Virus record (IMG/VR): IMGVR_UViG_3300033153_008361
Span: 1 to 64,000 of that record
DNA: 64,000 bases
Strand: one strand, 5' to 3'
From: a virus
Of the stretch, positions 8,463 to 46,904 are shown in pieces. Made by a program: the position numbers and the translations under genes. Position 1 is the first letter of the stretch, and each line of letters begins with the position of its first letter. The notes under the pieces were generated by a model. That model saw only the letters and a program-made list of their open reading frames with translations, had not been told where the DNA came from and did not search any database.

Positions 8463-8473
8463 ATTATCTCGCC

Positions 8474-31022: not shown

Positions 31023-31114
31023 GAATCGCCCTGGACAATAATTCTACTTATCCCTGATTGCTCATCAACGTGCGGGTCAATTCGCAATACCTTATATATG
31101 GTGCCAGGGCGATT
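31023..31114. promoter_or_regulatory. 11-bp inverted repeat pair flanking 70 nt
   Basis: AATCGCCCTGG (31023-33) pairs with CCAGGGCGATT (31104-14). It lies immediately downstream of the predicted leftward transcription start. Confidence 0.5.
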
Positions 31115-31123
31115 ACGCTTTCT

Positions 31124-31152
31124 ATAATATCAGATGTTATAGTGTTGGTCAA
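31124..31152 (-). promoter_or_regulatory. sigma70-like leftward promoter
   Basis: The minus strand reads TTGACC (31152-47), a 17-nt spacer, then TATTAT (31129-24). Confidence 0.5.
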
Positions 31153-31607
31153 GGGCAAAGCTGCACAGGCTTGAGCTATATGGCTCAGCTGGGGGGGCTT
31201 GGGATCTCGTCACCCATTTTAGGCTATCGAATCCGGCCGTTGAATCCTACCATGATCGATTATGATAACCTAGATTGTAATAATCGATCAGGCGGTCCGC
31301 CTGATGACAGGCAGAAGCAGCGGAGATCGAGCGGTCCGCCTGTCTCCCTGATGACACAGAAGCAGAAGCGGAGATCGCCTGAGCGGACCGCGGTTTTTTT
31401 CTGTTTGTTTTTTTCTGTCTGCTTAGATAATGTTTTTCTGTGTCTGTGTCGCTGTCTCCCTGTCTGCCTGATGAGACACAGAAGCGGACCGCCTGATCGG
31501 TCTGTGTGTGTGTTTGATGAGACAGAAGCGGACCGCCTGATCGGTCTGTGTGTCTCCCTGTGTGGCGATCTCTGTGTGTGTCTGCTTCTGTGTCCGCTTC
31601 TGTGTCT

Positions 31608-31631
31608 CCGCCTAATACAGGCGGGTTTTTT
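31608..31631 (+). terminator. terminator-like hairpin
   Basis: CCGCCT-aatac-AGGCGG is followed by GTTTTTT. Confidence 0.55.
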
Positions 31632-31747
31632 CTGTCTGTGTGTCGAGATCAGGCGGAGATCGGACCGCTCAGGCGATCTCTGCTTCTGTGTCGCATTCTA
31701 AGCGGAGACAGGCGGAGATCAGGCGGTCCGCTTTCTATATAGTACAG

Positions 31748-31772
31748 ACCGCCTATTTTTGTGGCGGTTTTT
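31748..31772 (+). terminator. terminator-like hairpin
   Basis: ACCGCC-tatttttgt-GGCGGT is followed by TTTT. It sits just upstream of the rightward promoter. Confidence 0.5.
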
Positions 31773-31786
31773 CCCTGTGATCTCAC

Positions 31787-31816
31787 TTGACAATAATTGA
31801 CATTATAGGTTATGAT
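31787..31816 (+). promoter_or_regulatory. sigma70-like rightward promoter
   Basis: TTGACA (31787-92), an 18-nt spacer, then TATGAT (31811-16). It is followed by the hairpin GGTCCGCGG-aaaaa-CCGCGGACC. Confidence 0.45.
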
Positions 31817-31882
31817 TTAGGTCCGCGGAAAAACCGCGGACCGCTCAGGCAGACACAAGAACACACAAGGAGTAAAGCGATA

Positions 31883-32356
31883 ATGACAGGCATTACAGAG
31901 AATACAGGAAAAACCGATCTAATTATTAGAGATCACAGACTCACAGAAGCGGACCGCCTGTATAAAAAATCATTCGATCTACACTTGAAAGCGGAGACAC
32001 AACTCGCACTATCTGAGATCATACGAGATCAGGCGGTCCGCTTAAAACTACAGGCGGAGAAAGCAGAAGCAGAAGCGGAGACAGGCGATCATTATATGGT
32101 TTTTCATTTTACTTGTGATCTAGTCATAGGGCACAATTTTACAGGGAGTGAAGTTATATTTTCCGCTATAGATGAGATCGAGATCATAAGACACACAGAA
32201 GCGGACCGCAAAAAATACGATCAATTAATTGTCCGCTTCTGCTTAGAAAAAAATCCGCTATTCCATATTGATACATTGTATTTTACTCTGAGCGATATAT
32301 CACATATTGACGATCACACAGGCGGACAATATAAACTCACAGAGATCACAATATAA
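31883..32356 (+). CDS. small TEADR-motif protein, paralog family member
   Basis: ATG 31883 follows AAGGAGTAAAGCGATA. The track start at 31787 is the promoter TTGACA. The protein has TEADRL, AEAEAE, DHYMVF and EIEI blocks shared with 32596-32913. Confidence 0.65.
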   Translation: MTGITENTGKTDLIIRDHRLTEADRLYKKSFDLHLKAETQLALSEIIRDQAVRLKLQAEKAEAEAETGDHYMVFHFTCDLVIGHNFTGSEVIFSAIDEIEIIRHTEADRKKYDQLIVRFCLEKNPLFHIDTLYFTLSDISHIDDHTGGQYKLTEITI

Positions 32357-32411
32357 CGGACCGCGGACCGCTCAGGCGGTCCGCCTGTACTTTACAAGGA
32401 GTAAAGCGATT
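32357..32411 (+). repeat. intercistronic hairpin-plus-RBS cassette, copy 1
   Basis: CGGACC-GCGGACCGC-TCAG-GCGGTCCGC-CTGTACTTTAC-AAGGAGTAAAGCGATT, then ATG. Confidence 0.85.
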
Positions 32412-32537
32412 ATGATCAAAGTATGGTTTTTTTGTGTTCTTGTTAGCATTCTGCTTTTGTACTACACAGAAGCGATCACAGCGGTTTTTTTTCTGATCGC
32501 TGTGGTTTTATATGAAACATGGAAGACGATCAATTAA
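32412..32537 (+). CDS. 41-aa membrane micropeptide
   Basis: The ATG follows the conserved cassette. The product is MIKVWFFCVLVSILLLYYTEAITAVFFLIAVVLYETWKTIN. Confidence 0.5.
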   Translation: MIKVWFFCVLVSILLLYYTEAITAVFFLIAVVLYETWKTIN

Positions 32538-32595
32538 TATCAGACCGCGGACCGCTCAGGCGGTCCGCCTGTACTTTACAAGGAGTAAAGCGATA
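32538..32595 (+). repeat. intercistronic hairpin-plus-RBS cassette, copy 2
   Basis: The stem is 32547-55/32560-68 (9 bp, perfect) with loop TCAG. CTGTACTTTACAAGGAGTAAAGCGATA follows. Confidence 0.85.
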
Positions 32596-32913
32596 ATGAA
32601 CGATCACATATTGACAGAAGCAGCGGAGACAGAAGCGGACCGCCTAAGCATAGAAGCGGAGATCAAGCGATCTCACACTCGACACAGAGAGACTCACCAC
32701 AGCGATCATTTTATGGTTTTTTCTGTCTGTGGTGATTTTACCCATTATGATCACCTGATCGCTTCTGTCTCCCTGATGGCAGACACAGAGATCGAGATCG
32801 ATTATATTGGCGAGCACACTATGATCGGTCTGATTATTTTGCCAAATGCTACAGAAGCGGAGATCACAGAAGCGGACCGCCTGTATAGTGAATTACAAGG
32901 AGTAAAGCGATAA
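32596..32913 (+). CDS. small TEADR-motif protein, paralog family member
   Basis: ATG 32596 (MNDHILTEAAETEADRL). DHFMVF and EIEI blocks are shared with 31883-32356. The ORF ends inside the next initiation motif (TAATG). Confidence 0.65.
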   Translation: MNDHILTEAAETEADRLSIEAEIKRSHTRHRETHHSDHFMVFSVCGDFTHYDHLIASVSLMADTEIEIDYIGEHTMIGLIILPNATEAEITEADRLYSELQGVKR

Positions 32914-33410
32914 TGACACACAACAATTGTGGTTTTAACAGACCACAGAGATCGAGCGGTCCGCGGTCCGCTTCTGTACTTTCTCCGCCTGAGTGTGAGA
33001 ACACATGGCGATCAGAGATAAAAAACCGCCACACATGCAAAGTAAAAAATACACAGGGAGACTCCGATCTCACTCTGATCTCTGACACACAGGAGATCGA
33101 TCACATTGGCGATTATTTAGGCATTAATCGCCTGAGTGAGGATTATGGTTGTCTGTTTGTCGAGATCGCTGATGGCGATTATGGTCATATATTGGGCTGT
33201 GAGTCTAATATTCCATACTTAGAAAAAATATTATATGACATAGATTATTATGAGGAAACATGGCGGTTTTTTCAGGAGATCGCAGAAAAACACAGCGAGA
33301 TCTATTGTCCTATGTGTGGCGGAGACTCCGCTCACTTGGGCACACTTGGCACACTTGATCATTATCGCTGTGTAATGTGTCATATGGAATTCTCACGATC
33401 TCAGGAGTAA
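32913..33410 (+). CDS. hypothetical protein with C-terminal zinc ribbon
   Basis: It follows the conserved initiation motif. It contains CPMCGG...HYRCVMC. Confidence 0.6.
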   Translation: MTHNNCGFNRPQRSSGPRSASVLSPPECENTWRSEIKNRHTCKVKNTQGDSDLTLISDTQEIDHIGDYLGINRLSEDYGCLFVEIADGDYGHILGCESNIPYLEKILYDIDYYEETWRFFQEIAEKHSEIYCPMCGGDSAHLGTLGTLDHYRCVMCHMEFSRSQE

Positions 33411-33420
33411 AGCGATAATA

Positions 33421-33476
33421 ACAGACCGCGGACCGCTCAGGCGGTCCGCCTACACTTTACAAGGAGTAAAGCGATA
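33421..33476 (+). repeat. intercistronic hairpin-plus-RBS cassette, copy 3
   Basis: It has the same unit with CTACACTTTAC. It is preceded at 33404 by a degenerate initiation motif lacking an ATG (GGAGTAAAGCGATAATA). Confidence 0.85.
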
Positions 33477-33791
33477 ATGAACGATCAAACAATAGCAGAG
33501 ATGGCATATACAGAAGCGGACCGCCTGAACACAGAAGCGGACCGCCTACAGGCAGAAGCGATCAAAATACAGGCAGAAGCGGACCGCCTGATCGAAAAAA
33601 TCACGAGCGGACCGCCTGATCTTGTGTATTACCAATACACAGGGAGATCGGATTTTTTCAATTATGAGAATTCGGGTGATCTCTGTTTTCACACTCCGCC
33701 ACAAGCGGAGAAAGCAGCGATCAATAATGGATTAATTACATGGCGAGTGATCATGGTCTGTGAGTATGTTGTCAAGACAGGGAAAGTATAA
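33477..33791 (+). CDS. small TEADR-motif protein, paralog family member
   Basis: MNDQTIAEMAYTEADRLNTEADRLQAEAIKIQAEADRL... Confidence 0.65.
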   Translation: MNDQTIAEMAYTEADRLNTEADRLQAEAIKIQAEADRLIEKITSGPPDLVYYQYTGRSDFFNYENSGDLCFHTPPQAEKAAINNGLITWRVIMVCEYVVKTGKV

Positions 33792-33792
33792 A

Positions 33793-34458
33793 ATGAACGA
33801 TCTAATACTGGCAGAAGCGGAAAAAAAGAAAGCAGAAGCGGACCGCCACAGAAAAACCGCGGACCGCCTGATCGCAGAAGCGGACCGCCTGTCAAACGTA
33901 TTTTATCTTAGAGATGAGATCGCAGAGAAAGCGGACCGCCTACAGGCAGAAGCGGACCGCCTGATCGCTTTCGCTGATCGCCTGATGGCAGAAGCGGAGA
34001 AAGCAGAAGCGGACCGCCTGATCGATAAAATCAGAAGCGGAGAAAAAATCAGAACATGGAAACATAAAACCGGCCTGTTTTTTATCGATCAGGAGATCAC
34101 AGAGATCGAGATCGAATTATGGCAGACAGGCAGAAGCAGAAGCGGAGACAGAGATCGCCTGTCTTATGTTTTAAGTGAGAATAGTGTGCCTGTATTTTAT
34201 GGTTTATCTGATCTAGGAATTCCGCCACACATGGCAATAGATAGCGATCTCTCTGTGTGTGCCTGTCTGTTTTTTCTCGCACTCAGGCAGGGAGACACAG
34301 ACAGTGATTATTTTGAAAACTACACAGACACACAATTACAATGGATACACTCACAGACCGCCACAGAGATCAGGGAGATCGTGAGCATATGTGAGGAAAA
34401 TGATCTCACACTCGATCAGGCGATCTCTGTTATGTTAGCATGGGAAACAGAAAAATAA
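33793..34458 (+). CDS. ADRL-repeat coiled-coil protein, paralog family member
   Basis: ATG 33793 (MNDLILAEAEKKKAEADRH). Seven ADR(L/H) repeats are present. It has a GGGAAAG RBS. Confidence 0.65.
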   Translation: MNDLILAEAEKKKAEADRHRKTADRLIAEADRLSNVFYLRDEIAEKADRLQAEADRLIAFADRLMAEAEKAEADRLIDKIRSGEKIRTWKHKTGLFFIDQEITEIEIELWQTGRSRSGDRDRLSYVLSENSVPVFYGLSDLGIPPHMAIDSDLSVCACLFFLALRQGDTDSDYFENYTDTQLQWIHSQTATEIREIVSICEENDLTLDQAISVMLAWETEK

Positions 34459-34516
34459 TATCAGACCGCGGACCGCTCAGGCGGTCCGCCTGTACTTTAC
34501 AAGGAGTAAAGCGATT
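34459..34516 (+). repeat. intercistronic hairpin-plus-RBS cassette, copy 4
   Basis: It is identical in core to copy 2. Confidence 0.85.
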
Positions 34517-34969
34517 ATGATCAGTTTAGAAGCAGCAAAAAATCTCACACATGGCGAGATCATTTATCACATAAGTCATAGGAATGCCGATCAGACTCCG
34601 CAGAGATGGCGCATTAATGGCAAAGTGAAAACATGGAGAACCAGACCACAGGAGATCAGTATACCTATAAAACACGGTTTATATGATTATGGTTATTTAA
34701 CACACAATGATCTTGATCTTGTGTGTCTGTCAGAAGCAGAAGCGGAGATCGTGACGAACTCAGGCACAGAGATCGGACATTATGATTATTTATATCGAAA
34801 CATAAAACACAGAGATTATATTTATGGCTGTGTGTTACCACAGGCGGACCGCCTACAGAGATCGATCATTGTAGGCGGAGATCGGACAATTGATGATCAG
34901 GGAGTGACAACAATTACAGGCGGAATCACCTATTATTTTCCTATAGGTGAGGAATCCGGCCTAAATTGA
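34517..34969 (+). CDS. hypothetical protein
   Basis: ORF track. It follows the conserved cassette. Confidence 0.6.
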   Translation: MISLEAAKNLTHGEIIYHISHRNADQTPQRWRINGKVKTWRTRPQEISIPIKHGLYDYGYLTHNDLDLVCLSEAEAEIVTNSGTEIGHYDYLYRNIKHRDYIYGCVLPQADRLQRSIIVGGDRTIDDQGVTTITGGITYYFPIGEESGLN

Positions 34970-34998
34970 CAGAAAAACCACAAACAGACCACAAACAG

Positions 34999-35036
34999 AC
35001 CACAGAGATCGATCAGGTGATCTCTGTGGTTTTTTC
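34999..35036 (+). terminator. rho-independent terminator
   Basis: ACCACAGAGATC-gatcaggt-GATCTCTGTGGT is followed by TTTTT. Confidence 0.8.
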
Positions 35037-35560
35037 TGTGTGTAGACCACAGAAGCAGCGGAGATCGGACCGCCTGAGCGGTCCGCCTGTCTGCCTGTCT
35101 GCTTCTGCGGTCTGTGTGCCTGTCTCCCTGTCACTTTGATCGAGATCGGACCGCTCAGGCGGTTTTTTTCCGATCAGGCGGTCCGCCTGTCTGCCTGTCT
35201 GCTTCTGCTTCTGTGGTCTGTGTCATCAGGCAGAAGCAGAAGCAGAGATCGCCTGAGCGGACAATACAGGCGATCTCTGTGTCTGCCTGTCTGCTTCTGC
35301 CTGTCTCCGCTGCTTCTGCTTCTGCTTCTGCGGTCTGTGTGTCTGTCTCCCTGTCACTTTGATCGAGATCGGACCGCTCAGGCGGAGATCGATCAGGCGG
35401 TCCGCCTGTCTGCTTCTGTTATCCCAGGACACAGACCGCCACAGAGATCAGGCGGACCGCGGACCGCTCAGGCGGAGATCGATCAGGCGGTCCGCCTGTC
35501 TTCCCAGCTGGGATCGGCCGACTGGCAGAAGCAGCGGAGATCAGGCGATCATGGTTCATT
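35037..35560. repeat. word-repeat island B (ORF-free)
   Basis: It uses the same vocabulary. A 62-bp direct repeat (35101-35162 and 35324-35385) has one mismatch. A long imperfect palindrome lies at 35224-35300. Confidence 0.85.
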
Positions 35561-35691
35561 CACACGCGCAAAAATGATCGGTGAGCAGAATTTTATAATG
35601 TTTTCGGCCGGGTCTTTTTGGTTTTTCTGGTTTTTTTTATTGGTTTACGGCCGGGTTTTTCCGGCGCGATTACACACAAGGAGTAAAGTAT

Positions 35692-36063
35692 ATGATCACA
35701 GCTATAGTTATGGGCGCATATGGTAAAAAAGATGAGTACAGAGTGGATCGACTTGCTAACCGTGGCGAGTGGTTCGGTAAAACTTGGTTCGTTGGGATCG
35801 GTTGCGGGTTCGATATACACCGCGTAGTAGTAGAAGCGGACAATGAGTCAGAGGTGATCGACGCCTTGACGGATTCGGCCGCTGGTCACTTGATAAAAGT
35901 TGATGAGGAATGCCCCCATCAAGATCCTGATCAATGGGATCAATGTAATTGCACATTTGCCGGTAATTTTTCTGATCGCGTCGATCTGGATGACATTCGA
36001 ATTCTGAAGCGTTGCAAAGTAAAATATTTTGAACCGGCCGATCGTTGGTTGGATATTAGCTAA
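35692..36063 (+). CDS. hypothetical protein
   Basis: ORF track. It has an AAGGAGTAAAGTAT start region. Confidence 0.6.
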   Translation: MITAIVMGAYGKKDEYRVDRLANRGEWFGKTWFVGIGCGFDIHRVVVEADNESEVIDALTDSAAGHLIKVDEECPHQDPDQWDQCNCTFAGNFSDRVDLDDIRILKRCKVKYFEPADRWLDIS

Positions 36064-36420
36064 ACAGACAGACACAGACCACAGGATCAGACAGGATCGG
36101 CCGGTTTTCGGCCGGTCCTGAGTGTGATCGCGTCTCTGTATGGTTTTACCTGTCTGCCTGTCTGCCTGTCTGCCTGAGCGGAGATCGGACCGCTTGATCG
36201 GTCTGCTTCTGCTTCTGTGTCTCCGCTTGTGCCTGTCTGCCTGTGTTCTCATTGGGCGGACCGCTCAGGCGATCTCTGTGTGTGTGTCCGCCTGTCTGCC
36301 TGTGTCCTCATCAGGCGGACCGCTCAGGCGATCTCTGTGTCTCCCTGTCTGCCTGTCTGCTTCTGTGTGTCTGCCTGTGTCCTCATCAGGCGGAGATCGG
36401 CCGGTTCTACCACAGGTAAA
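36064..36420. repeat. word-repeat island C (ORF-free)
   Basis: It has CTGTCTGCCTGTCTGCC runs. GCGGACCGCTCAGGCGATCTCTGTGT occurs twice, near 36256 and 36315. Confidence 0.85.
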
Positions 36421-36532
36421 ACGCGCCGGCGCGGAAAGTCTGAACGGCCGTTCGATCCTTGCCGGCCAACGGTCCGCGGCGAGTGTGGTCGAGCGGGCAG
36501 CGGGCGGACCGTGGGCGGGGGCGCTTCTACTA

Positions 36533-36640
36533 TATACACGCGGGATCGACATAGGCGAGCAGAATTTACACGCGCTAAGGGGTTCGGCCGCCTTAAAAAA
36601 TACACGCGGCCGGGGAGGTGCGAGCAGAATTTACACGCGG
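36533..36640. promoter_or_regulatory. tandem ~65-bp unit carrying a 20-bp perfect direct repeat (operator or iteron candidate)
   Basis: GCGAGCAGAATTTACACGCG occurs at 36555-74 and 36620-39. ATACACGCGG occurs at 36534 and 36600. A related copy (CACACGCGC...GAGCAGAATTT) lies at 35563-35594. Confidence 0.6.
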
Positions 36641-36697
36641 ATCGAAGGGGGGCGGGCTGGAGTTGGCAGCAAATCGGGCGGATCGGTTCTCATTTAC

Positions 36698-36725
36698 TTG
36701 ACAAGCAATTATAAGGTGTTATTAT
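36698..36725 (+). promoter_or_regulatory. sigma70-like promoter
   Basis: TTGACA (36698-703), a 16-nt spacer, then TATTAT (36720-25). Confidence 0.5.
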
Positions 36726-36781
36726 CTATCTATCCGACGCGGGCCGCGGGCGGTCCGCCTTAGTAATAAGGAGCAAGCGAA

Positions 36782-37549
36782 ATGATAAATGATCAGAATT
36801 TAGAGATCGGGCAATTGGTAAAGGTTAGCAGATCGCTCACCGTGGGCGATCTATATGGGGCGGGACATTCTCAGGCGGGGGAAGTGGTGATCGTGGCGGG
36901 GGAAGTCGGCCGGGTTATATCGCCTGTCATTGCAGAGGCGCGGGACGGGTCGAAGTTGGATCGGCCGTGGGTTGTGGTTCGCTTTTTCTTCACTTTGCCG
37001 GATCACTACCGGCGCGATCCAACCTGTGAACCGGTCCACAATATAAAGATCGGGCGGCTGGAAGCGGTGACAGAGGCGGAAGCGGTGATCCTGATTATGA
37101 TCGGGCGCTATGGTAAACCGTGGGCCAATACGAGACAGGATCGGGCGGCTATGGCCTCATATATGGATCAGCGGCCGTTATATGACGATCCCGGCGTTTT
37201 GGGTAACTGGAGATCAGCGGCTTCTATCTTGTCAGAAGTGGCGGAGCGGGTGAGCCTTGCTGCTTGGGGGGTTCATCCGGCCGGGGAGACGGATCTCACC
37301 GTATACATGGAAGCGGGCGATCCGGGTGAGCGGGTCAATTGTGAGGGGTTCGTTGTGGACGGGGACGGGGGGATCGTCTTTGATACTGTAGGCGGCGGGC
37401 CGTATCTCTGCGAAAGTTGCAACAAATCGATCCGGTTCTTGACATGCTCAGGGCGGGCGATCTGTGAGGCATGTCTGGACGCGGAGATCGCAGAGGCGGA
37501 AGCGGTGACAGGGGCGGGCTATATTACGCCTAATGAGGCGATCATATAA
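36782..37549 (+). CDS. hypothetical protein
   Basis: ORF track. It has an AAGGAGCAAGCGAA start region. The C-terminus contains CESC...CEAC. Confidence 0.65.
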   Translation: MINDQNLEIGQLVKVSRSLTVGDLYGAGHSQAGEVVIVAGEVGRVISPVIAEARDGSKLDRPWVVVRFFFTLPDHYRRDPTCEPVHNIKIGRLEAVTEAEAVILIMIGRYGKPWANTRQDRAAMASYMDQRPLYDDPGVLGNWRSAASILSEVAERVSLAAWGVHPAGETDLTVYMEAGDPGERVNCEGFVVDGDGGIVFDTVGGGPYLCESCNKSIRFLTCSGRAICEACLDAEIAEAEAVTGAGYITPNEAII

Positions 37550-37914
37550 TGGCTATACGAAACGGTATAAAGTGGGGTAACGGGCGGATCTGGCAAATGA
37601 TCGGGAAAGCAGCAAGGGAAGCGGAGCGGGCCGAGCAGATCGAGCGGGTGAAAGCAGAGACGGCCGCGGGGGGTTTTCCGCTGTGCCTCTGTGACATATG
37701 CCTATATTATGAAAACGATCCCGCGGACCGGGCCAAGTGGCGGATCATTATGCACAGGCGGCGATCACAACTGATCGCGCTTAGCCGTCACTATCTGCGA
37801 AACTTTCACGGCTTCACAGCGGCGGAGTGTGATCAGTTCGGTCCTGAGTGTGATCGGGTCATTCTGGCACATAATGACGCGGCGATCCGTTGTGGCGGTG
37901 ATCCTATTGTATAA
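37549..37914 (+). CDS. hypothetical protein
   Basis: ORF track. It has a TAATG junction. Confidence 0.6.
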   Translation: MAIRNGIKWGNGRIWQMIGKAAREAERAEQIERVKAETAAGGFPLCLCDICLYYENDPADRAKWRIIMHRRRSQLIALSRHYLRNFHGFTAAECDQFGPECDRVILAHNDAAIRCGGDPIV

Positions 37915-37961
37915 CCAACGCGGGCCGGGTTCGGCTTGCCTTAGCTAAGGAGTAAAGCGAA

Positions 37962-40900
37962 ATGATACAGATCCACGATAAACAGACAGAAGCGAACGCG
38001 GGCCAAGCGGAACGGGCGACACTTTACCACCGATCCGGGCTTGGCCTTGGTTATAACAAGCGGGAAGTAAAGCGGATCGAATGGGCGCGGGGTCAATATG
38101 CCCAATATGATCAGGCGGTCCGGCTACGCTGGAGAGAACCCCGGCAACGCAAAGATCGCCAAACATGGCTCACTTATAAGCCGGACGCGGTGATCGTGGC
38201 GGGCTGGAATAACCCCGATCCGCCGTCCTCATATAACACAACTAAGGACAAAGACGGAACGATCCAACGCGGGAAATATACCAGTTTCGATCCCCGCTTT
38301 ACTTCCGATTTTCGGTCATGGCTTGCGGACGCGGGCCTCACGGTGATCGCGGACTTTCACAAGGCGGAGACAGGCGATCAGGGGTCGATCTCCCTTACAG
38401 AGATCGCGGAGCGGGGGCGGGCTGAGCGAGAAGCAGAAGCGGAGAAAGCAACGCGGATCGCGTCTGTTATAACGGAAGCAGAACCGGCCGAACTGGAAGC
38501 AGAGACGGAAGCGGGCGATCTTGGGGCTTATGATACGGCGGATAATTGGATCAATCGTTGGGGTGACTTCTACAAAGACACACAACAACACAACGCGGAA
38601 GCGGCCAAACTGGAAACAGAACCCGATCCCCTTGCTGATTATTCTAACGGGGATCTACTTGGTGATTATTTGGATCTGTGTCCTCATTATGATCAATCTG
38701 ATGAGGATATAACGGAGATCAGGACCGTACTCACGGCGCGGGGCTTCTTATTTGTGGCTCAGGCGGACGGGGGCGGGCCAACAGAGGCGGAAGTCAAAAC
38801 CACGGCGGATCGGCTCATCAGGGAAGCAAAAACGGCGGACCGGGCCAACGGACGCGGGCCGGGGTTCGATATATGGACTAAGGCACAAGCAGCGGCCAAA
38901 GCAGAAGCGGCGGAAGCTGAGCAACACGCGGAGACAGAACCCGCGGACCGGGTAAAGATTGAACCGGCCGACGCGGATCGCTTTGAATATATCGAACCCG
39001 AACCCGATCCAGTTATGCCAGCGGGCGCGGCGGAGTCAATCACAGGTAAAGAAGTTGGAAAAATGATCCGGCCACGGTTGCGGGCTATCTTTCCCGGCGT
39101 CACGTTCTATGTAAGGACTGATCATAGTTCACTTGATATAAGCTGGATCGACGGGCCAACGGGGGCGGAAGTCAAAAAGATCGCGGGCCAATATGACGGC
39201 GGCGGCTTCGATGGCATGATCGATCTTGGTTATTGTATTTATCATTGGTTAATGCCAGATGGATCGACGCGGATCGCCTATTCCAGCGGTACAGCGGGAT
39301 CGGGGGGTTCTGTGTCCGCGTTTGGCGGTGACGGGTCAAAGCCTGATCCGGGGGCGCGGTTGGTTAGCTTCCACACGGAATATATAAACTGTAAACGGGC
39401 GCATTCGGCCGACTTCTTAAAGCGGGCGGGGGAGCAAATCAGCGGTGAGTATAATTGGCCTGTGCCAAAGATTGAAGCTAGTACAACATGGATCTCACAC
39501 TCCAAAACTATTGACGGCGCGTCATTTGTCCATGATCCGATCAACGCTCCAGCCCCCGCGGATCATTTTCGGGCGGGCGGGTCGCCTTATGTCCGATCTT
39601 TGGGCGGGGTTTTCGATCACGCGGCTCACGATATAAGCTATTATGAACCGCCAAAAGCAAAGCCGAAAGCTAAGCGGGCCGCGGGCGGGGCTTCTGTCGA
39701 TTATGATCCCGCGGAAGCGGTGATCACCTATAGTGAGCGGAACGGCGCGATCTGGACATGGATCGAAACGGTAAAACCCCCGGCCGATGTGAGGGACGGG
39801 CTAACGGGGATCGGCTTCTTTTGGTGGCGGAAGCGGGGCAAATGGGCCGCCAAGCAAGAGATCGCAGAGGACACGATCCGCGCTATACTGGAAGGGGGAT
39901 CGGGCGCTCAGGGAGACGGGGACGGGGGCGGAGAAGCTGATCCGCCGTCCTCATCCCCAAGCAAGCCAAAGACTAAGGCCGAACCGGGGACAGAACCCGA
40001 TCAAGCTAAGGCGGAGAAGCTGATCGCCTTGGCGGACTCCTTCGACAAACAGATCCAAAAGAAGCGGGACACGTTCAAAGGGGCTAACCTCACTCACAGG
40101 CGGGCGGAGTTCATAGCGTCCGCAAACTATGACGCGGATCGAATGCAAGAAGCACAAATGATCCTGATCGCCTTGGCGGACCTGTGGACAGTTGGAAGCG
40201 TCCCGGCGCAATTTAGGAAAATGGGAACTAAAAAAACGGCGCTGGAGTTGACTCACAATATCCGGGCGCGGGCTAAGTATGGGGATAAGTACCCATCAGA
40301 CTATAATGATCGTGTTTGGGGGTCATGGGGCGATTATAACGCGGCTCACGCATGGGCGGACCGGGTGATCTCAGGGGTCGATAACACTGAGCGAGACGCG
40401 GAGCGAAAGATCGCCGGGCTGGAGCAAAACGCCAAATTTGCCAAGATCCGCGGGTTTTTCCCCACTCCGCGGGCCGTGGCGGATCTTATGCTGGAGCATG
40501 TGAACCTCACAGAGGGGGATCTTGTTTTAGAACCCTCAGCGGGATCGGGCGCTCTATGCGATATGATCGCGGAATACTTCCCACGCGCCACGCTTCACGC
40601 GGTCGAAGTGTCTCACATGCTCAGGGAGATCCTCACCTTAAAGGGGCACGAGTTGATCGGCCGGGACATTTACGATCTCGATCCTGTGGATAGCATCGGA
40701 AAATATGACGCGATCATAATGAATCCCCCATTTGAAAAAATGCAAGACGCCGATCACGTTCGCTTTTGTTATGCGATGTTAAAAAGCGGCGGAACGCTAG
40801 TGAGCGTTATGTCCCCGTCACCCTTCCACAATTCCACTCACGCGGCGGCGGATTTCCGATCATGGTTCGATACATTTGGCGGTGAGAAGTTCGATCTCCC

Positions 40901-40967
40901 CGTTGGCAGCTTCAAAAAGTCCGGGACGGGCGTAAGTTCTTGTTTTATTGTCATCAGCAAAGATTAG
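37962..40967 (+). CDS. large polyvalent-type protein with C-terminal gamma-class N6-adenine DNA methyltransferase domain
   Basis: The C-terminus has motif I (LEPSAGSGAL) followed by motif IV (IIMNPPF). The upstream 800 aa contain Ala/Glu-rich linkers and unassigned globular modules, for example FYVRTDHSSLDISWIDGP and GIGFFWWRKRGKW. Confidence 0.75.
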   Translation: MIQIHDKQTEANAGQAERATLYHRSGLGLGYNKREVKRIEWARGQYAQYDQAVRLRWREPRQRKDRQTWLTYKPDAVIVAGWNNPDPPSSYNTTKDKDGTIQRGKYTSFDPRFTSDFRSWLADAGLTVIADFHKAETGDQGSISLTEIAERGRAEREAEAEKATRIASVITEAEPAELEAETEAGDLGAYDTADNWINRWGDFYKDTQQHNAEAAKLETEPDPLADYSNGDLLGDYLDLCPHYDQSDEDITEIRTVLTARGFLFVAQADGGGPTEAEVKTTADRLIREAKTADRANGRGPGFDIWTKAQAAAKAEAAEAEQHAETEPADRVKIEPADADRFEYIEPEPDPVMPAGAAESITGKEVGKMIRPRLRAIFPGVTFYVRTDHSSLDISWIDGPTGAEVKKIAGQYDGGGFDGMIDLGYCIYHWLMPDGSTRIAYSSGTAGSGGSVSAFGGDGSKPDPGARLVSFHTEYINCKRAHSADFLKRAGEQISGEYNWPVPKIEASTTWISHSKTIDGASFVHDPINAPAPADHFRAGGSPYVRSLGGVFDHAAHDISYYEPPKAKPKAKRAAGGASVDYDPAEAVITYSERNGAIWTWIETVKPPADVRDGLTGIGFFWWRKRGKWAAKQEIAEDTIRAILEGGSGAQGDGDGGGEADPPSSSPSKPKTKAEPGTEPDQAKAEKLIALADSFDKQIQKKRDTFKGANLTHRRAEFIASANYDADRMQEAQMILIALADLWTVGSVPAQFRKMGTKKTALELTHNIRARAKYGDKYPSDYNDRVWGSWGDYNAAHAWADRVISGVDNTERDAERKIAGLEQNAKFAKIRGFFPTPRAVADLMLEHVNLTEGDLVLEPSAGSGALCDMIAEYFPRATLHAVEVSHMLREILTLKGHELIGRDIYDLDPVDSIGKYDAIIMNPPFEKMQDADHVRFCYAMLKSGGTLVSVMSPSPFHNSTHAAADFRSWFDTFGGEKFDLPVGSFKKSGTGVSSCFIVISKD

Positions 40968-40994
40968 GGCCGGGAACGGTCAAAGGATCGTATT

Positions 40995-41195
40995 ATGTAC
41001 TATGTATTTTCCTACTATACCAAAAGATACAACGCCAAAGGGGAGATCGTGACCGAGTACGCGCCACGGCTACACACGATCAAAAAGAATATTGAGACGG
41101 AAGCGGAAGCACAACAGGCGGTGAGGGATTATGACGCCACTCACAAACGCGGGCCGCTCGGCCGGGTTGCTGGATATGATGACCAAAGACGCTAA
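40995..41195 (+). CDS. hypothetical protein
   Basis: ORF track. It has an AAAGGA RBS. Confidence 0.5.
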   Translation: MYYVFSYYTKRYNAKGEIVTEYAPRLHTIKKNIETEAEAQQAVRDYDATHKRGPLGRVAGYDDQRR

Positions 41196-41208
41196 AGGAG
41201 ATCAACCA

Positions 41209-41622
41209 ATGAACGATCAAGAAAAAATACACGCGGACACGGAACACGCGCCAGAAGTCGATCCGGGCTTCTCGGGGCTTCACACGCGGGAAACGTGGGA
41301 GCAAATCTCACAGGCGCTATTCAAGATTGAACAGACGGCCGTAACGCTCCAGCGCCAAGCTAAGCGGGCGCAATACTACGCGGGCGCGGCTAGTTCGCTT
41401 CTTTTCTTGCTGGAGCAAGAACCCGAAACGCTAGAAAAAATGCTTGATTCTTTGGGGCTTCACATGGATGAGCACGATCAGCGGATCGATCTCCTTACAA
41501 GCAGTACGGCGGACTCTGATCAATGGGCCGTAGCATCGGCCGAAACTCTGATCGCGTTACATGAACTCAATCAACTTTGGGGTACATTAGATCCTTTAGT
41601 ACAAGAGTTAGGTATTAACTAA
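41209..41622 (+). CDS. hypothetical protein (MND N-terminus like the 32.6-34.5 kb paralogs)
   Basis: ATG 41209 follows AAAGGAG. It starts ATGAACGATCA, as do three upstream paralogs. Confidence 0.55.
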   Translation: MNDQEKIHADTEHAPEVDPGFSGLHTRETWEQISQALFKIEQTAVTLQRQAKRAQYYAGAASSLLFLLEQEPETLEKMLDSLGLHMDEHDQRIDLLTSSTADSDQWAVASAETLIALHELNQLWGTLDPLVQELGIN

Positions 41623-41672
41623 ATAAACACGCGCTAGAGCGATCCAGCGCCTTAAAATAAGGAGTAAGCGAA

Positions 41673-42350
41673 ATGAGTCACAATGTATTTATGACAGAGG
41701 ACGTTAACACATTCAGCACATTAATGTATCAATACGGCCACGGATCGAGCGGGCGCGGGCCTTGGCGGGTGATTGGCGGTGACGATCTCCGTTCTGAGGG
41801 GATCAAATTTGACGCCACTCCGCGCCACTGGTACATAACTAACACGCTCACAGGCGTTTCTAAGCGGATCGGACCGTCCACAGGCCGGGGCACTAATTAC
41901 TTTGATCGGGCGCGGTTATTGGCCGAGCAACGTAACCAAGACCACTGGAGCAAGAACCCGCCAACGCTGAACACACCTGATGAGATCGCGGACCTGTGGA
42001 TCGAGCGGGATCGGATCGTCCTGGAGTTTAACGGATCTGATAAGGTTGGGATCAGGGTACGCGGTTTTAATGCTGTGATCAATGCCTATTTTGAGAAGCT
42101 ACCCGGCCGGGGTTGGGTCGAAATTGGCGGACCGTTCCAAGGTTTTAACCGGGTACTTGGGCCGGGGTTCAATTGGTCCTCAGAGGGGCTACAGGTACAG
42201 ATCCGCGGCGGCCAATGGAAGCATAACAAGATCCAACCGGGCGAAATTAAGCGGCTGGAAGGGCTGATCGCGGGTTGGCTGGAGTCTCAACACCTACGCG
42301 ATCTGGAAGTCAAGGTAACACGCACTAGGGGCGGGGAGCGTCTGTACTAA
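41673..42350 (+). CDS. hypothetical protein
   Basis: ORF track. It has the conserved initiation motif. Confidence 0.6.
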   Translation: MSHNVFMTEDVNTFSTLMYQYGHGSSGRGPWRVIGGDDLRSEGIKFDATPRHWYITNTLTGVSKRIGPSTGRGTNYFDRARLLAEQRNQDHWSKNPPTLNTPDEIADLWIERDRIVLEFNGSDKVGIRVRGFNAVINAYFEKLPGRGWVEIGGPFQGFNRVLGPGFNWSSEGLQVQIRGGQWKHNKIQPGEIKRLEGLIAGWLESQHLRDLEVKVTRTRGGERLY

Positions 42351-42562
42351 TGGACAAAAACGCGCTCACGATCACAATAAACGGCCGTAATTGGCGGGGG
42401 TCACGCTTTGTAGATGAGGTTGATCTCGCCGTCCTGGAAAAAATGATCGCCATGTACCTGGAGCACAAACAGTACGCGATCTTTGAAACACGCCAAGCGC
42501 CGGATCATATTGTTTATGATTATACGGTCACGGTAACGCGCTCCAGCGGGGGATCGGCTTAA
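42350..42562 (+). CDS. hypothetical protein
   Basis: ORF track. It has a TAATG junction. Confidence 0.5.
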   Translation: MDKNALTITINGRNWRGSRFVDEVDLAVLEKMIAMYLEHKQYAIFETRQAPDHIVYDYTVTVTRSSGGSA

Positions 42563-42843
42563 TGTTCACTTTTGAGACTGATTGTACCTGTAGTACGGCG
42601 CGGTGGATCAACAATATGGTTGATCAGGCGCGTGAGGTTACTTATGAGACGCTAGTACGCCGGGTAGGGGTCGATCAATTGGCCTCTGTGTTTCCCTTCT
42701 ACGAGTGGGGGCGCGGGACGCGGGCGGGCCTCAGAATGAAAGATGACTATATGATCAGCTACTATCGGAGCAAATACCGCGGGCGGACCTGCTACTATGT
42801 TTGTCATTCATCTATTGAATATATTTTCACTGAGTCCGGCTAA
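42562..42843 (+). CDS. hypothetical protein
   Basis: ORF track. It has a TAATG junction. Confidence 0.5.
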   Translation: MFTFETDCTCSTARWINNMVDQAREVTYETLVRRVGVDQLASVFPFYEWGRGTRAGLRMKDDYMISYYRSKYRGRTCYYVCHSSIEYIFTESG

Positions 42844-42863
42844 GGCCGGGAAGGAAAAGCGAA

Positions 42864-43547
42864 ATGATAAAAGTAAACGCATCAGATATTAAAGTTAATT
42901 TGCTCCTGGATGATTGTCCCGATCTGTCATGGTTGGGGACGTTTGGAACTAAGCCGGAAACGGATCAGGCGATCAAGCACAACGGCGGGCGTAATACGCT
43001 CCCTTGGTTCAATCCTGGTAACGCGGGTGAGGATTATGAGGACGAATATTGCCAGCAAGATTATGAGCGGATCATGGGCTATGAAAATGGGGATTGGTAT
43101 ATGATGGGCGTCCGGGCCAAGATCACGCTCACGCTCCCTGAGTTCAAGGAAAACGCTTTACAACGGCTCGGCCGTCGGTTGGGCCTGTTAAAACGGGTTC
43201 ACAAGTCCTGGAGTCTACACGAATTCAATACGCCGGGGCTATGGGGGGTCGAATCTGACTCTGATTATTTCCTGGAAGTCTGGATTGAAGAGGTTTACTC
43301 ACTCGTTGCCCAACTCAGGCAGCTAAACATTAAGGTTAAGAATGATCACGCGGGCTTCTTAACGGTTGATCCCCCCTTCGATAGTGAGTCTGTTATCACC
43401 CTCAGTGATAGGCAACGGGCGGACCTGGATCGGGCGCTGGCCGCCGGTCCGTTTTGGGCGAAGCGTTTCGGGCGCTGGATCGTTCGGTTATTAGATAGTC
43501 GATACGCCAAAACTCAGGCGGAGATCGCAGTATTTAACGCGGCTTAG
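42864..43547 (+). CDS. hypothetical protein
   Basis: ORF track. It has a GGAAGGAAAAGCGAA start region. Confidence 0.6.
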   Translation: MIKVNASDIKVNLLLDDCPDLSWLGTFGTKPETDQAIKHNGGRNTLPWFNPGNAGEDYEDEYCQQDYERIMGYENGDWYMMGVRAKITLTLPEFKENALQRLGRRLGLLKRVHKSWSLHEFNTPGLWGVESDSDYFLEVWIEEVYSLVAQLRQLNIKVKNDHAGFLTVDPPFDSESVITLSDRQRADLDRALAAGPFWAKRFGRWIVRLLDSRYAKTQAEIAVFNAA

Positions 43548-43611
43548 GGCGTTTGGGGTATCACAGGTTATATCGGGCCACTTAGGGCCGTAAGGCCAAA
43601 GGATAAGCGAA

Positions 43612-44139
43612 ATGAAAGATACTAACGAGATCACAATAAAGAATCATAAACATGGAAAAACCTATTTTGGGAAGCGTAACGCGGCCATTATCACGAACCC
43701 GATAGGGGCAACATTTACAAGCGTCCGCTTCTATGAAAGTGAGGCCGATCTACAGGCCGGGGATCTGGCCTTGTCTTTTCGCAGGGACTTCCGAAACTGG
43801 ACGAAAATAAGCGGCCGGAAGCAAGCCGAGATCGCGGCCACTATTTGGGCCAATATGACGCGGGGTGTAACCGTTTGGGATAACGGCGGAGCAACGGCCG
43901 ATCGTTACCGGGTCATTATTAATACCTCTGTGTACTATATGAGCAAACGCGCCAACCAACCAAACGGGGTGTGCATGTATTCGGGCGAAACATTCAACAA
44001 CCATGAAAACACAGGAGATCCAAAGAAGCGGATCGCGCTCGGGGATCTTCCGCTCGGGGTTGCATCGCAGATCGGATACCTCATCTATGCTGAGCATGAA
44101 CACCTAGAATACTTAAAGGAGATCGGCCATGTTCAATAA
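43612..44139 (+). CDS. hypothetical protein
   Basis: ORF track. It has an AAAGGATAAGCGAA start region. Confidence 0.6.
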   Translation: MKDTNEITIKNHKHGKTYFGKRNAAIITNPIGATFTSVRFYESEADLQAGDLALSFRRDFRNWTKISGRKQAEIAATIWANMTRGVTVWDNGGATADRYRVIINTSVYYMSKRANQPNGVCMYSGETFNNHENTGDPKKRIALGDLPLGVASQIGYLIYAEHEHLEYLKEIGHVQ

Positions 44140-44971: not shown

Positions 44972-44987
44972 TAAGGAGTAAAGCGAA

Positions 44988-45317
44988 ATGAAGAAAAACA
45001 AATCATTCAAATGGAAAGTTACGCTTCTGACAGACTCGGGCAACTTCAAAGGATCTCCCTTCTCTAGTAGCCGATTTGACGCGGAAGGGTTCAGGATCGG
45101 GGACATAATCGTAACGCAAATCAAGGCCGACGCGGTAACAATCGGGCGGAACTATGTCCAACGAAAACCGCCCTATGATAAGCGTAAGGCTATCATCCAA
45201 CGCCGTTGGGGAGCGATCAAGCCGTCTCAGGTTCTTTATTCCCAAGGCATGATAATCGAAAAGAATCAGGCTCACCATATCGATCCGGCTTCGCCAACCG
45301 GCTATAGCGTTATATAA
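44988..45317 (+). CDS. hypothetical protein
   Basis: ORF track. It has the conserved initiation motif. Confidence 0.55.
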   Translation: MKKNKSFKWKVTLLTDSGNFKGSPFSSSRFDAEGFRIGDIIVTQIKADAVTIGRNYVQRKPPYDKRKAIIQRRWGAIKPSQVLYSQGMIIEKNQAHHIDPASPTGYSVI

Positions 45318-45334
45318 CGCAAAGGAGATCAATT

Positions 45335-46808: not shown

Positions 46809-46814
46809 AAAGAT

Positions 46815-46841
46815 AAGCCCCGGCTGATAAGACCGGGGCTT
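46815..46841 (+). terminator. terminator-like hairpin
   Basis: AAGCCCCGG-ctgataaga-CCGGGGCTT. The T tract is weak. Confidence 0.5.
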
Positions 46842-46868
46842 GGCATACCCCTTGCGGAGTAAAGCGAA

Positions 46869-46904
46869 ATGTATACACATTCTAACACAAGGAGATCGAA
46901 ATGA
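46869..46904 (+). CDS. 11-codon upstream mini-ORF coupled to the next gene
   Basis: GGAGTAAAGCGAA then ATG TAT ACA CAT TCT AAC ACA AGG AGA TCG AAA TGA. Its stop overlaps the ATG of 46901, and its codons 8-9 form that gene's AAGGAG. Confidence 0.35.
   Translation: MYTHSNTRRSK

Follow-up and report, generated by a model that had tools for sequence, protein, structure and literature searches.

Positions 1 to 64,000 of IMG/VR virus record IMGVR_UViG_3300033153_008361 (64,000 nucleotides, hereafter the window) come from an uncultivated tailed phage of ~90 kb. Between positions 31170 and 36780 of this window lies a 5.6-kb stretch composed of a few words of 7-17 bases, present in spacers as well as within small genes. 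This word lattice is real, statistically extreme and, for the parts covered by other assemblies, reproducible, and parts of it are similar to phage regulatory repeats already known. The words belong first of all to the DNA (or RNA): the constraint is not on the protein, and the proteins accommodate the words. It appears to be functional, a phage control or plasticity region of a kind not yet explained. The explanation that we favour, tentatively and at somewhat less than an even chance, is that of a hyperplastic early accessory-gene locus where repeats evolve in concert and act both as transcription punctuation and as recombination patches.

A lattice of short words

An initial annotation, made from the letters of the sequence, had listed ten + strand copies of the 14-mer GGACCGCTCAGGCG. 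All are exact (31662, 32365, 32549, 33430, 34470, 35148, 35371, 35461, 36258 and 36317), and the 13/14 copy that it gave at 31838 (+) was also found. Additional copies are an exact one on the - strand (35071-35084) and a 13/14 one at 31376 (-), for a chance expectation of 0.03. The 17-mer CAGAAGCAGCGGAGATC occurs exactly at 31312, 35050 and 35526, as had been noted, and the inverted copy matches it at 15 of 17 positions (35302-35318).

The words are essentially limited to 31-37 kb of the window and are enriched 20- to 180-fold with respect to their rate in the rest of it (33 versus 0.18 for CAGAAGC, 33 versus 0.53 for GGACCGC and 45 versus 1.8 for GAGATC). The 10-mers occurring at least three times, on either strand, cover 54% of the bases of 31170-36780 against 0.1% (maximum 1.1%) in 100 dinucleotide shuffles; for 8-mers occurring at least five times, the coverage is 61% against 0.07%. 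The excess of repeated words perceived in the initial annotation thus holds against dinucleotide composition. The repeats fall into 16 direct-repeat families and 10 inverted pairs, with tandem micro-arrays of periods 6, 8, 12, 14, 21 and 59. Word identity often stops abruptly after 13-17 nt, the flanks being unrelated and uninformative (61 copies of GAGATC). Several words are strictly confined to one strand, the ratios being 15:0 for CTGTCTGC and 20:0 for GGAGATC.

Part of the vocabulary is written in frame in the small open reading frames (ORFs), as claimed initially: there, CAGAAGC/GCGGACCGC is nearly always read in one frame, encoding (T/A)EADRL. The claim does not extend to the whole vocabulary, since CTGTCTGC (15 copies), TCTGTGTG (9 of 10 copies in islands) and GCTTCTG (14 of 17) are words of the non-coding islands described below. 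The seven small ORFs contain 299 occurrences of repeated 10-mers versus 18 ± 11 (maximum 58) in 300 synonymous shuffles, in which each protein and the pooled codon usage were held constant; the excess therefore also survives the codon-preserving comparison that had been proposed. All 11 EADR motifs use identical codons (GAA GCG GAC CGC). Finally, the word string GGCAGAAGCAGAAGCGGAGACAGAGATCGCCTG is read in another frame in ORF 33793, as RSRSGDRDRL, at a poorly conserved stretch corresponding to a variable loop of the conserved domain of that protein family, which argues that the words are primarily a DNA (or RNA) feature.

Islands, stem-loop cassettes and small genes

The features of the region are the following; promoters were called by a sigma70 consensus scan, and terminators were likewise predicted from the sequence.

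31101-31152: divergent promoter-like sites, rightward GTGCCA-16-TATAAT at 31101-31128 and leftward TTGACC-17-TATTAT at 31152-31124
31270-31786, +: island 1, non-coding, A-poor (16% A), words in both orientations, RNA fold z = -10.0
31787-31816, +: sigma70-type promoter TTGACA-18-TATGAT (11/12), 5' of the small-gene block
31883-32356, +: small early ORF of 157 aa with two TEADR words and a strong Shine-Dalgarno (SD) sequence, AAGGAGTAAAGCGATAATG
32357-32411, +: stem-loop and SD cassette 1, stem 32363-32384, GCGGACCGC-TCAG-GCGGTCCGC followed by CTGTACTTTACAAGGAGTAAAGCGAT
32412-32537, +: hydrophobic ORF of 41 aa, just 3' of cassette 1
32541-32595, +: stem-loop and SD cassette 2, stem 32547-32568
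32596-32913, +: small early ORF of 105 aa, N-terminus MND..L.EA..EADRL
32913-33410, +: small early ORF of 165 aa with a C-terminal CxxC...CxxC motif
33422-33476, +: stem-loop and SD cassette 3, with 2 substitutions, stem 33428-33449
33477-33791, +: small early ORF of 104 aa, with a 21-nt tandem word repeat at 33511-33589 (3.8 copies) that corresponds to heptads
33793-34458, +: small early ORF of 221 aa, with an EADRL-encoded N-terminal helical hairpin and a C-terminal phage-family domain
34462-34516, +: stem-loop and SD cassette 4, stem 34468-34489
34517-34969, +: small early ORF of 150 aa, last gene of the block, exact protein in 4 JGI contigs
34997-35038, +: strong intrinsic terminator, 15-pair stem then TTTTTT, at the end of the small-gene block
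35037-35560, +: island 2, non-coding, 15% A, polar words CTGTCTGC and GCTTCTG, long hairpins, RNA fold z = -9.6
35692-36063, +: ORF of 123 aa between islands 2 and 3, ordinary vocabulary, low word coverage, same SD type
36064-36420, +: island 3, non-coding, 12% A, (CCTGTCTG)n, RNA fold z = -4.6, family D12, tandem units found by Tandem Repeats Finder
36698-36725, +: main early operon promoter TTGACA-16-TATTAT with TG

The predicted promoter at 31787 precedes seven small genes (31883-34969), with the SD sequence AAGGAGTAAAGCGAT at each. The four 55-nt cassettes (family D2), located 5' of ORFs 32412, 32596, 33477 and 34517, are near-identical and their flanks have diverged; each has a stem of 9 bp, 8 of them GC, a 4-nt loop and then ACAAGGAGTAAAGCGATAATG. 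The consensus scan found no -35/-10 pair within them, the only promoter-like sites being those at 31787, 36698 and 31101. Terminator-like sites are four-fold in excess in the region (20 versus 5.0 ± 2.3 expected). A further repeat, ACACGCG-N13/14-GAGCAGAATTT, is present three times, at 35569-35593 (5' of gene 35692), 36538-36568 and 36604-36634 (both 5' of the 36698 promoter); the copies could be operators or a non-sigma70 promoter.

The three islands, of 357-524 bp, amount to about 1.4 kb of spacer and flank the small-gene block and the gene that follows it. Their hairpin-forming character, inferred initially by eye, is confirmed by the fold z-scores listed above, computed against shuffles, and by the excess of terminator-like sites. 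Island 1 has hairpins followed by T runs at about 31380-31400, 31607-31631 (where a terminator-like site is predicted, at 31607) and 31745-31775; it contains repeat families D1, D4, D8 and D14 and inverted pairs I1 and I6. Island 2 has repeat families D10 and D15 and a predicted internal T7 terminator at about 35150-35170. It carries recent duplications, one of 65 nt with 98% identity (223 nt apart) and one of 42 nt with 100% identity (90 nt apart). Island 3 has a 59-nt unit in about three repeats, with the 14-mer in each. Together, the 98-100% internal duplications, the 59-nt tandem units and the 8-nt arrays of the islands indicate ongoing turnover. Inverted pairs I1 and I3 connect islands 1, 2 and 3.

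The islands had been described as having no credible ORF. Mechanical ORFs of 176-207 aa do cross them, one of which was called by JGI, so that the description is not literally true; these ORFs have no SD sequence, give Cys/Leu/Ser/Arg-rich junk translations, and are open only because the + strand has just 12-16% A. As to their being coding, the initial verdict stands.

The words also shape the proteins. In ORF 32913, which has weak matches to DUF6839, zf-BED and phrog_21991, the inverted words GGTCCGCGGTCCGCTTCTG are translated as SGPRSAS; in ORF 31883, the segment GDHYMVF aligns with SDHFMVF of ORF 32596. ORF 33793 is the best characterized of the set: it is a real protein whose C-terminal domain is a widespread uncharacterised phage family. 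It has 655 representative homologs at E <= 0.001, aligned over residues about 103-205 only, and this domain of roughly 100 aa (consensus HAIDSD..LL.FLTLRPGDTDxEYFxxYTxxQLxW) was found at 55 IMG/VR viral loci. The AlphaFold2 model (pLDDT 92.4) has a helical hairpin (residues 2-81) followed by a four-strand sheet and helical domain; in spite of this confident model, sequence and fold searches found no relative in Pfam, PHROGs or the PDB. The hairpin is the part encoded by EADRL words, the 21-nt tandem array itself being in the paralog 33477. Since the homologs align to the C-terminal domain only, the word-encoded hairpin looks like a lineage-specific addition.

Replication in other assemblies

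Proteins of the window were found exactly in several JGI samples, the contigs reaching 90,081 bp. One contig, from another sample, corresponds to window positions 32654-35653 with 1 mismatch in 3000, island 2 being identical in it; contigs from two other samples contain a 180-nt core of island 3 unchanged. Only the present assembly includes island 1 and the sequence left of 32654. Two further contigs of this phage (L002 and L003) begin inside the lattice, as do those of the relative described next (L004 and L037), which is expected from repeats.

The same layout in other words

The lattice is followed, in the early operon, by a gene that provided the link to a relative:

37962-40967, +: polyvalent protein of 1001 aa with LPD29 and NPPF methyltransferase domains, in the early operon

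For this protein one clear relative was found, with 49% identity, in a phage (L004) of marine-sediment metagenomes. The two phages share two genes only, the polyvalent gene and an adjacent small ORF (66-80 aa). In L004, word islands are present 5' of the polyvalent gene, at L004:1-340 and 1390-2390; a promoter and two small genes lie between them, and they are followed by a 25-nt repeat pair starting CACGCGC and then by a strong promoter. The order mirrors that of the window: islands, small-gene cassette, islands, operator-like repeat pair, strong promoter, polyvalent gene. The words, which also occur in the cassette genes of L004, differ: they are GGCTCAGG, GGCTGCC, CCACCTGG and GGATCCGGCTCCTGG. 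At least GGCTCAGG is almost wholly on the transcribed strand (36 copies on +, and 37:0 for its 7-mer core GCTCAGG), and this GCTCAGG core is common to both lattices. Both phages abound in W-centred palindromes, CGGWCCG here (8.9/kb), CCWGG (19.6/kb) and GCWGC (22/kb) in L004, where GATC is enriched too, over the first 6.5 kb. It is because a distant relative has the same layout in other words that the region looks functional.

Two assemblies of the sediment phage, L004 and L037, differ, to judge by their gene coordinates, by about 207 nt in the lattice, between a 247-aa gene and the polyvalent operon; this is either a real length polymorphism or assembler disagreement in repeats. LPD29 polyvalent genes are not generally accompanied by a lattice: at 17 further viral loci only ordinary promoter repeats were present, and L001 had none. 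A prophage and host search of 185,579 species genomes with the polyvalent protein as query found nothing.

Other IMG/VR contigs have word arrays of related appearance. Among loci with a 33793-type domain, L161:500-6050 has a double-hairpin and SD intergenic unit in 8 repeats, and L167:1790-2900 has CCACCTGGCC / GGGCCGC word arrays just 5' of TTGACA small-gene promoters. Three unrelated contigs end in (GGGCTCA)n or (CCTGAGC)n (L232:1-180, L250:13500-13588 and L267:1-165). These heptamer arrays, which contain the GCTCAGG core, adjoin other short-word arrays and iterons, and that of L267 is about 440 nt 5' of an ORF resembling, by eye, a small terminase subunit; the ends could be physical termini or assembly break points. 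Searches of IMG/VR for relatives with the vocabulary of the window gave no match with a 21-mer query, chance singletons only with the 15-mer CAGAAGCGGACCGCC, and mostly singletons, plus a few end-of-contig arrays, with the 15-mer GGCTCAGGGCTCAGG. A search for known phage DNA, also proposed initially, returned no megablast match to 31170-36780 among 50,697 phage records.

A GATC-rich domain attached to the lattice

The odd composition had been said to end at 36780. This is true of the words; GATC remains about 5-fold enriched up to about 47 kb, in a domain that begins at the lattice.

31170-47000: GATC-rich domain, 332 sites, 20-23/kb versus about 5/kb elsewhere, faded by about 47-50 kb

The median spacing of the sites is 38 bp, and no gap exceeds 345 bp. 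The enrichment in the early-operon genes is selected at the DNA level, beyond codon usage: GATC occurs 174 times against 100.8 ± 6.2 in synonymous shuffles, and GATG 17 times against 43 ± 3.7. The late genes display neither effect (59 GATC versus 65 in shuffles). A helical phasing of the GATC sites was sought and only a weak 10.5-bp signal was found, beside the 3-nt coding period.

Within the domain, CGATCG, GGATCC and AGATCT are reduced to about 0 (expected, 12-21 for the first two and 7-9 for AGATCT) and TGATCA is tolerated; this NGATCN pattern is the one predicted, from enzyme sensitivities, by Dam-type methylated GATC. Over the whole window, about 20 other palindromic hexamers are completely lacking, among them AAGCTT, AGCGCT, AGTACT, CCCGGG, CTCGAG, GATATC, GCATGC, GGCGCC and TGTACA. 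These two sequence patterns together suggest a host rich in restriction-modification (R-M) systems, with N6-methylated GATC.

Genomic setting

The lattice lies at a divergent control region, the ORF strand switch and the change of sign of the GC skew both being at about 31 kb. Rightward, the order is the lattice, the early operon, then a XerC/D-like recombinase, a helix-turn-helix initiator-like gene, DnaB and two methyltransferase-like genes. The other landmarks are:

about 3-30 kb, -: minus-strand arm with a major-head-like gene and the large terminase
7266-8540, -: major-head-like gene
15226-16908, -: large terminase
54-56.5 kb: DnaB/initiator genes

Most genes of the window have no Pfam or PHROG match, and no tRNA or tmRNA was found in a search for them. 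A PAPS-reductase-like gene (14246-15256) stands beside the terminase. Three genes are DNA-methyltransferase-like: the polyvalent LPD29 and NPPF gene at 37962-40967, a weak adenine-methyltransferase-like gene at 56802-58511 and an N6_N4 methyltransferase at 58678-60192. The sole other highly repetitive part of the window is at 1-3200 (-), where long collagen-like Gly-X-Y repeats (GDTGxxG...) most likely belong to a tail-fibre gene. Three codon dialects coexist in the genome: the late genes (3.3-23.5 kb) prefer GCC/GCT, in the small ORFs (31.9-35.0 kb) 74% of Thr codons are ACA, 89% of Lys codons AAA and 5% of Ala codons GCC, and in the early operon (36.8-46.2 kb) GCG makes up 51% of Ala codons, CGG 50% of Arg codons and ATC 63% of Ile codons.

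A proposed plastic early accessory-gene locus

According to the interpretation that we tentatively favour, the 31787 promoter would drive the seven small genes up to the terminator at 34997-35038, with the cassettes as punctuation. The vocabulary would have arisen by concerted evolution of the DNA itself: short patches would be copied, inverted and tandemly duplicated between repeats and would spread into tolerant parts of genes; 21-nt word repeats maintained in one frame would then give (T/A)EADRL heptad helices. The repeats would form stable hairpins at the 3' and 5' ends of early RNAs, attenuate or terminate read-through, and insulate the cassette from the main early operon and its 36698 promoter. 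They may also be portable homology patches by which small early genes are gained, lost and shuffled, like the PeSLs of T4-like phages (see below).

Several lines of evidence lead to this interpretation. The promoter, SD sites, ORFs and terminator form a coherent unit; terminator-like hairpins are in excess, folds are strong, and four near-identical cassettes have diverged flanks. To these are added the duplications and arrays of the islands, the excess over synonymous shuffles, the layout of L004, the L161 and L167 units, the apparently lineage-specific hairpin of gene 33793 and the contigs starting in the lattice. The PeSLs and the T5 pre-early repeat regions serve as precedents. The anatomy and statistics of the region, the constraint at the DNA level, the partial replication among assemblies and the recurrence of the layout in other words in L004 are direct observations. 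A plastic accessory-gene locus accounts for the presence of cassettes and terminators, for the duplications and contig breaks, and for the difference in gene content between equivalent islands in the two phages. From these observations we infer the parts played in transcription, termination, insulation and recombination, as well as the copying mechanism; termination and insulation would operate at predicted sites.

Other observations weigh against such a locus, which gives a poor account of four features: how much spacer there is, how sharply the words end, their strand polarity and the GATC-rich domain. Terminators or insulators would require far less than about 1.4 kb of a compact phage genome. 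Word edges as sharp as those seen here, at 13-17 nt, fit motif selection better than ordinary gene-conversion tracts, and recombination patches do not need the strict strand polarity of several words. The GATC-rich 16-kb domain is left unaccounted for, the cassettes are without the promoter that defines a PeSL, and no structural variant was seen between the available, near-identical, assemblies of this phage. The poorly explained features (spacer, edges, polarity and GATC) keep alive two other models, an array of binding or modification sites and structured RNAs.

Alternative explanations

The most serious rival, proposed already in the initial annotation although we consider it rather unlikely, is that the lattice is made of dense arrays of DNA binding or recognition sites, the short sharp-edged words being the functional units. 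Their palindromic cores would be GATC and CGGWCCG here, and CCWGG/GCWGC in the relative. The binder could be a phage repressor or roadblock protein (stoperator-like), a protein coating the DNA or loading on it (the polyvalent methyltransferase, for instance), or a host R-M or defence factor for which the array would be a sponge or decoy. As copy number would matter, arrays would turn over and the vocabulary would co-evolve with the binder. It is the sharp edges, the palindromic cores and the lineage-specific vocabulary that maintain this model as a rival. Thus, GAGATC keeps its edges amid random flanks through 61 copies, CGGWCCG has 50 sites in 5.6 kb (8.9/kb) versus 17 in the other 58 kb of the window, and the lattice has 130 GATC sites. 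The model also agrees with the use of the same codons in all EADR motifs, the words in the variable loop of the conserved 33793 domain, the different vocabulary with a shared GCTCAGG core at the same position in L004, and the selection of GATC in early genes (174 versus 101 ± 6) in a genome that otherwise purges about 20 palindromic hexamers. Against it, the only genes common to the two lattice phages are those of the polyvalent protein and the 66-80-aa ORF, and 17 more distant LPD29 phages have no lattice. Island words such as CTGTCTGC are non-palindromic and strand-polar, which also fits an RNA role, and the helical phasing of GATC is not clearly outstanding.

A more specific form, to which we give an equally low probability, is that dense, fast-evolving arrays of short R-M-type palindromes are written into early spacers and codons as a cis platform protecting or programming the incoming genome. 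In this phage the arrays would consist of GATC, with a site every 45 bp or so through 16 kb, together with CGGWCCG at 9/kb; in the relative, they would consist of CCWGG/GCWGC together with GATC. The polyvalent methyltransferase might load on the platform or methylate it; alternatively, the platform might be a sponge, decoy or roadblock directed at a DNA-binding protein of the host or phage.

It is improbable, in our view, that the islands encode abundant structured non-coding early RNAs, A-poor, nuclease-resistant, multi-hairpin and bounded by terminators. Working in trans, such RNAs would be sponges or decoys of an RNA-binding host factor, or would pair as antisense with the cassette mRNAs, which have complementary words. 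The strong folding (z of -10, -9.6 and -4.6), the A-poor composition, the predicted intrinsic terminators inside and around the islands, and the polarity of island words relative to transcription, seen likewise in L004, are all consistent with such RNAs. Stretches of 30-38 nt in islands and ORFs are 71-84% complementary (inverted pairs I4, I5 and I8-I10), but complementarity is automatic when words are used in both orientations. Furthermore, island 2 follows a strong terminator and has no evident promoter, the islands show no complementarity to ribosome-binding sites, and both their 98-100% internal duplications and the unrelated vocabulary of L004 speak against a conserved fold. Searches for known RNAs were negative: Rfam 15 gave 0 matches in the window at gathering thresholds, and a permissive rescan of 31.0-36.9 kb (E <= 1) gave chance-level hairpin (miRNA-type) matches alone. 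We also scanned bacterial genomes (contigs, one genome per species) for the hairpin GCGGACCGC-N4-GCGGTCCGC. There were at least 120 matches; the 120 listed were singletons alone, spread over many high-GC genomes, and for these a host REP or CRISPR source of the hairpin was rejected. With the Rfam result, this leaves the decoy or repeat-mimic RNAs imagined in the initial annotation without support.

Slightly less probable still is a non-adaptive origin, by cryptic simplicity: early DNA under weak constraint would have been filled with scrambled short repeats by replication slippage, by template switching at hairpins and by unequal exchange, the small ORFs tolerating the outcome. Cryptic simplicity reportedly designates scrambled, interspersed short motifs arising from slippage-like processes, coding sequence included. 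The tandem micro-arrays, the recent duplications, the lineage-specific vocabulary and the similar simple arrays that end unrelated viral contigs are what such processes would leave. However, a tightly packed genome would not be expected to keep about 1.4 kb of useless spacer, the layout is repeated at the same position in a phage sharing only 2 genes, many words are dispersed rather than tandem, with exact sequence and sharp edges, and the parts covered are identical in sequence across three samples. Cryptic simplicity is, moreover, a process and not a function; it does not predict a conserved position in a relative, sharp words of 13-17 nt or strand polarity.

We think it very unlikely that the lattice is a staged DNA-entry signal like the injection-stop region of T5, i.e. 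a first-entering pre-early segment with islands that pause entry until early proteins are made. There is an overall likeness to the T5 first-step-transfer region (10.1101/866236), inverted pairs I1 and I3 link the three islands, and the early domain has its own oligonucleotide regime. Yet paired DnaA boxes are absent, and the lattice occupies an internal position, at a divergent control region some 14 kb away from the terminase gene, with no evident terminus or terminal repeat. The motif TTWTNCACA is present 5 times in the window, at chance level, and 0 times within 31-37 kb. Nor is a role in replication or packaging control, another early suggestion, favoured by the position of the lattice relative to the terminase and to the DnaB/initiator genes.

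An even smaller probability goes to polar anti-nuclease or methylation-related arrays, namely Chi-like sites taming RecBCD/AddAB or methylated clusters blunting restriction. GAAGCGG and AGCGG, which we take to be the Chi sequences of S. aureus and B. subtilis and which may not be those of the host of this phage, come to mind here: GAAGCGG is distributed 23:3 between strands in the lattice and 14:1 in the early operon, where GCGG is 187:31. The NGATCN pattern, as Dam-type methylation would predict, and the three methyltransferase-like genes fit methylated clusters. On the other side, the + strand orientation faces an enzyme coming from the right, which is wrong for entry from the left of the lattice and control region; the words of L004 differ; and the (GGGCTCA)n arrays at contig ends are of mixed orientation.

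An assembly or library artefact (adapter concatemers or mis-assembled low-complexity reads) is close to refuted: some words superficially resemble pieces of Illumina P5/P7 and Nextera adapters and contigs tend to break in the lattice, but no match of at least 11 nt to the Illumina, Nextera, PacBio and Oxford Nanopore adapter and primer sequences tested was found in the lattice or the L004 islands, three samples gave the same sequence (32,654-35,653 and the island 3 core), and the words are in frame within a gene with 655 homologs and a confident fold.

Other candidates were rejected. The repeats are irregularly spaced and their 'spacers' consist of the very same words, so that the region is not a CRISPR array, nor, as had been recognized at the outset, a simple satellite. 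Neither is it an integron-like cassette array, the recombinase at 48742 being XerC/D-like (50 bits versus the 265-bit integron-integrase cut-off); the hairpin lies before the SD sequence and attC-type core sites were not seen by eye. Nor does anything point to the earlier idea of a substrate for this recombinase, a generic enzyme encoded 12 kb away, no att- or attC-like site having been seen. CUGAUGA motifs are not hammerheads according to the Rfam test, G-quadruplexes are at odds with a 3-fold depletion of GGG/CCC in the lattice, and the HIP1-type palindrome GCGATCGC is absent.

Comparison with described repeats

No description of the whole feature, i.e. a vocabulary shared by spacers and codons, its turnover at a conserved position and the attached GATC-rich domain, was found in the literature. 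The statement of the initial annotation that it knew of no described phage element with this architecture was too strong, as partial precedents exist in the PeSLs (PMC2839356) and in T5 (10.1101/866236).

The PeSLs of T4-type phages are stem-loop and SD/promoter cassettes that flank ORFans (Arbiol et al. 2010, PMC2839356; Comeau et al. 2014, PMC4122927), and it has been suggested that they attenuate or terminate transcription and provide the homology by which modules are shuffled (PMC2839356). The likeness is in the repeated intergenic GC-rich stem-loop followed by an SD sequence and a start codon, beside small ORFan early genes in a hyperplastic region. PeSL units differ in having a strong sigma70-like early promoter, whereas the four cassettes here have no -35/-10 pair, and in that they neither enter coding sequence nor build islands, as the lattice vocabulary does with its three islands of 357-524 bp.

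The first-step-transfer DNA of T5 (R1-R3, with the injection stop) has, besides small pre-early genes, several large regions that are untranslated and contain palindromes as well as direct and inverted repeats; an inverted-repeat pair flanks a poorly conserved block of small genes, and anti-restriction functions are expressed early (Davison, bioRxiv 10.1101/866236). Here too, untranslated repeat regions are interleaved with small early genes and inverted repeats bracket a poorly conserved coding block. But T5-like phages keep the sequence and order of the T5 repeats, which are located in the terminal repeat and have paired DnaA boxes (10.1101/866236), whereas the present locus, internal to a 90-kb contig, has no DnaA boxes and no evident terminus, and its relative uses another vocabulary.

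Other comparisons are with more dispersed elements. The SAS and ESAS of Cluster K mycobacteriophages are said to be short conserved words just 5' of many start codons, with an inverted repeat in the ESAS. Stoperators of Cluster A are reported to be sites in one orientation scattered in genes and spacers, roadblocks for a repressor with immunity-specific sequence. The strong polarity of several lattice words (GGAGATC and CTGTCTGC) might recall the latter. The word density, dozens per kb, is however an order of magnitude higher than for these three elements, and the lattice has several word types, both orientations, palindromic cores and islands, where a stoperator is one asymmetric site of 12-13 bp. 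REP/BIME and Rickettsia palindromic elements are mosaics in which palindromic units alternate in orientation and, once transcribed, form hairpins; the Rickettsia elements can sit in frame in genes. They are genome-wide host elements with units of 35-150 bp, in contrast to words of 7-17 nt at one 5.6-kb phage locus, and no RAYT-like transposase was found among the ORFs scanned against Pfam or PHROGs.

Implications

It is in their early regions that phages concentrate functions of host takeover and anti-defence, and that new genes arise most rapidly. In this phage, a vocabulary overrides synonymous codon choice and builds protein segments, 21-nt words giving heptad helices fused to a conserved domain. 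The locus offers clonable sequences for termination, binding and methylation assays. If plasticity and punctuation are the right explanation, the PeSL idea would extend well outside T4-like phages, and repeats could seed new coding sequence. If the words are binding or modification arrays then, with the selected 16-kb GATC domain, they would be a new viral way to protect or program the first-expressed DNA; and should the cis platform be real, a principle of defence evasion or regulation would be held in oligonucleotide usage and not in a gene.

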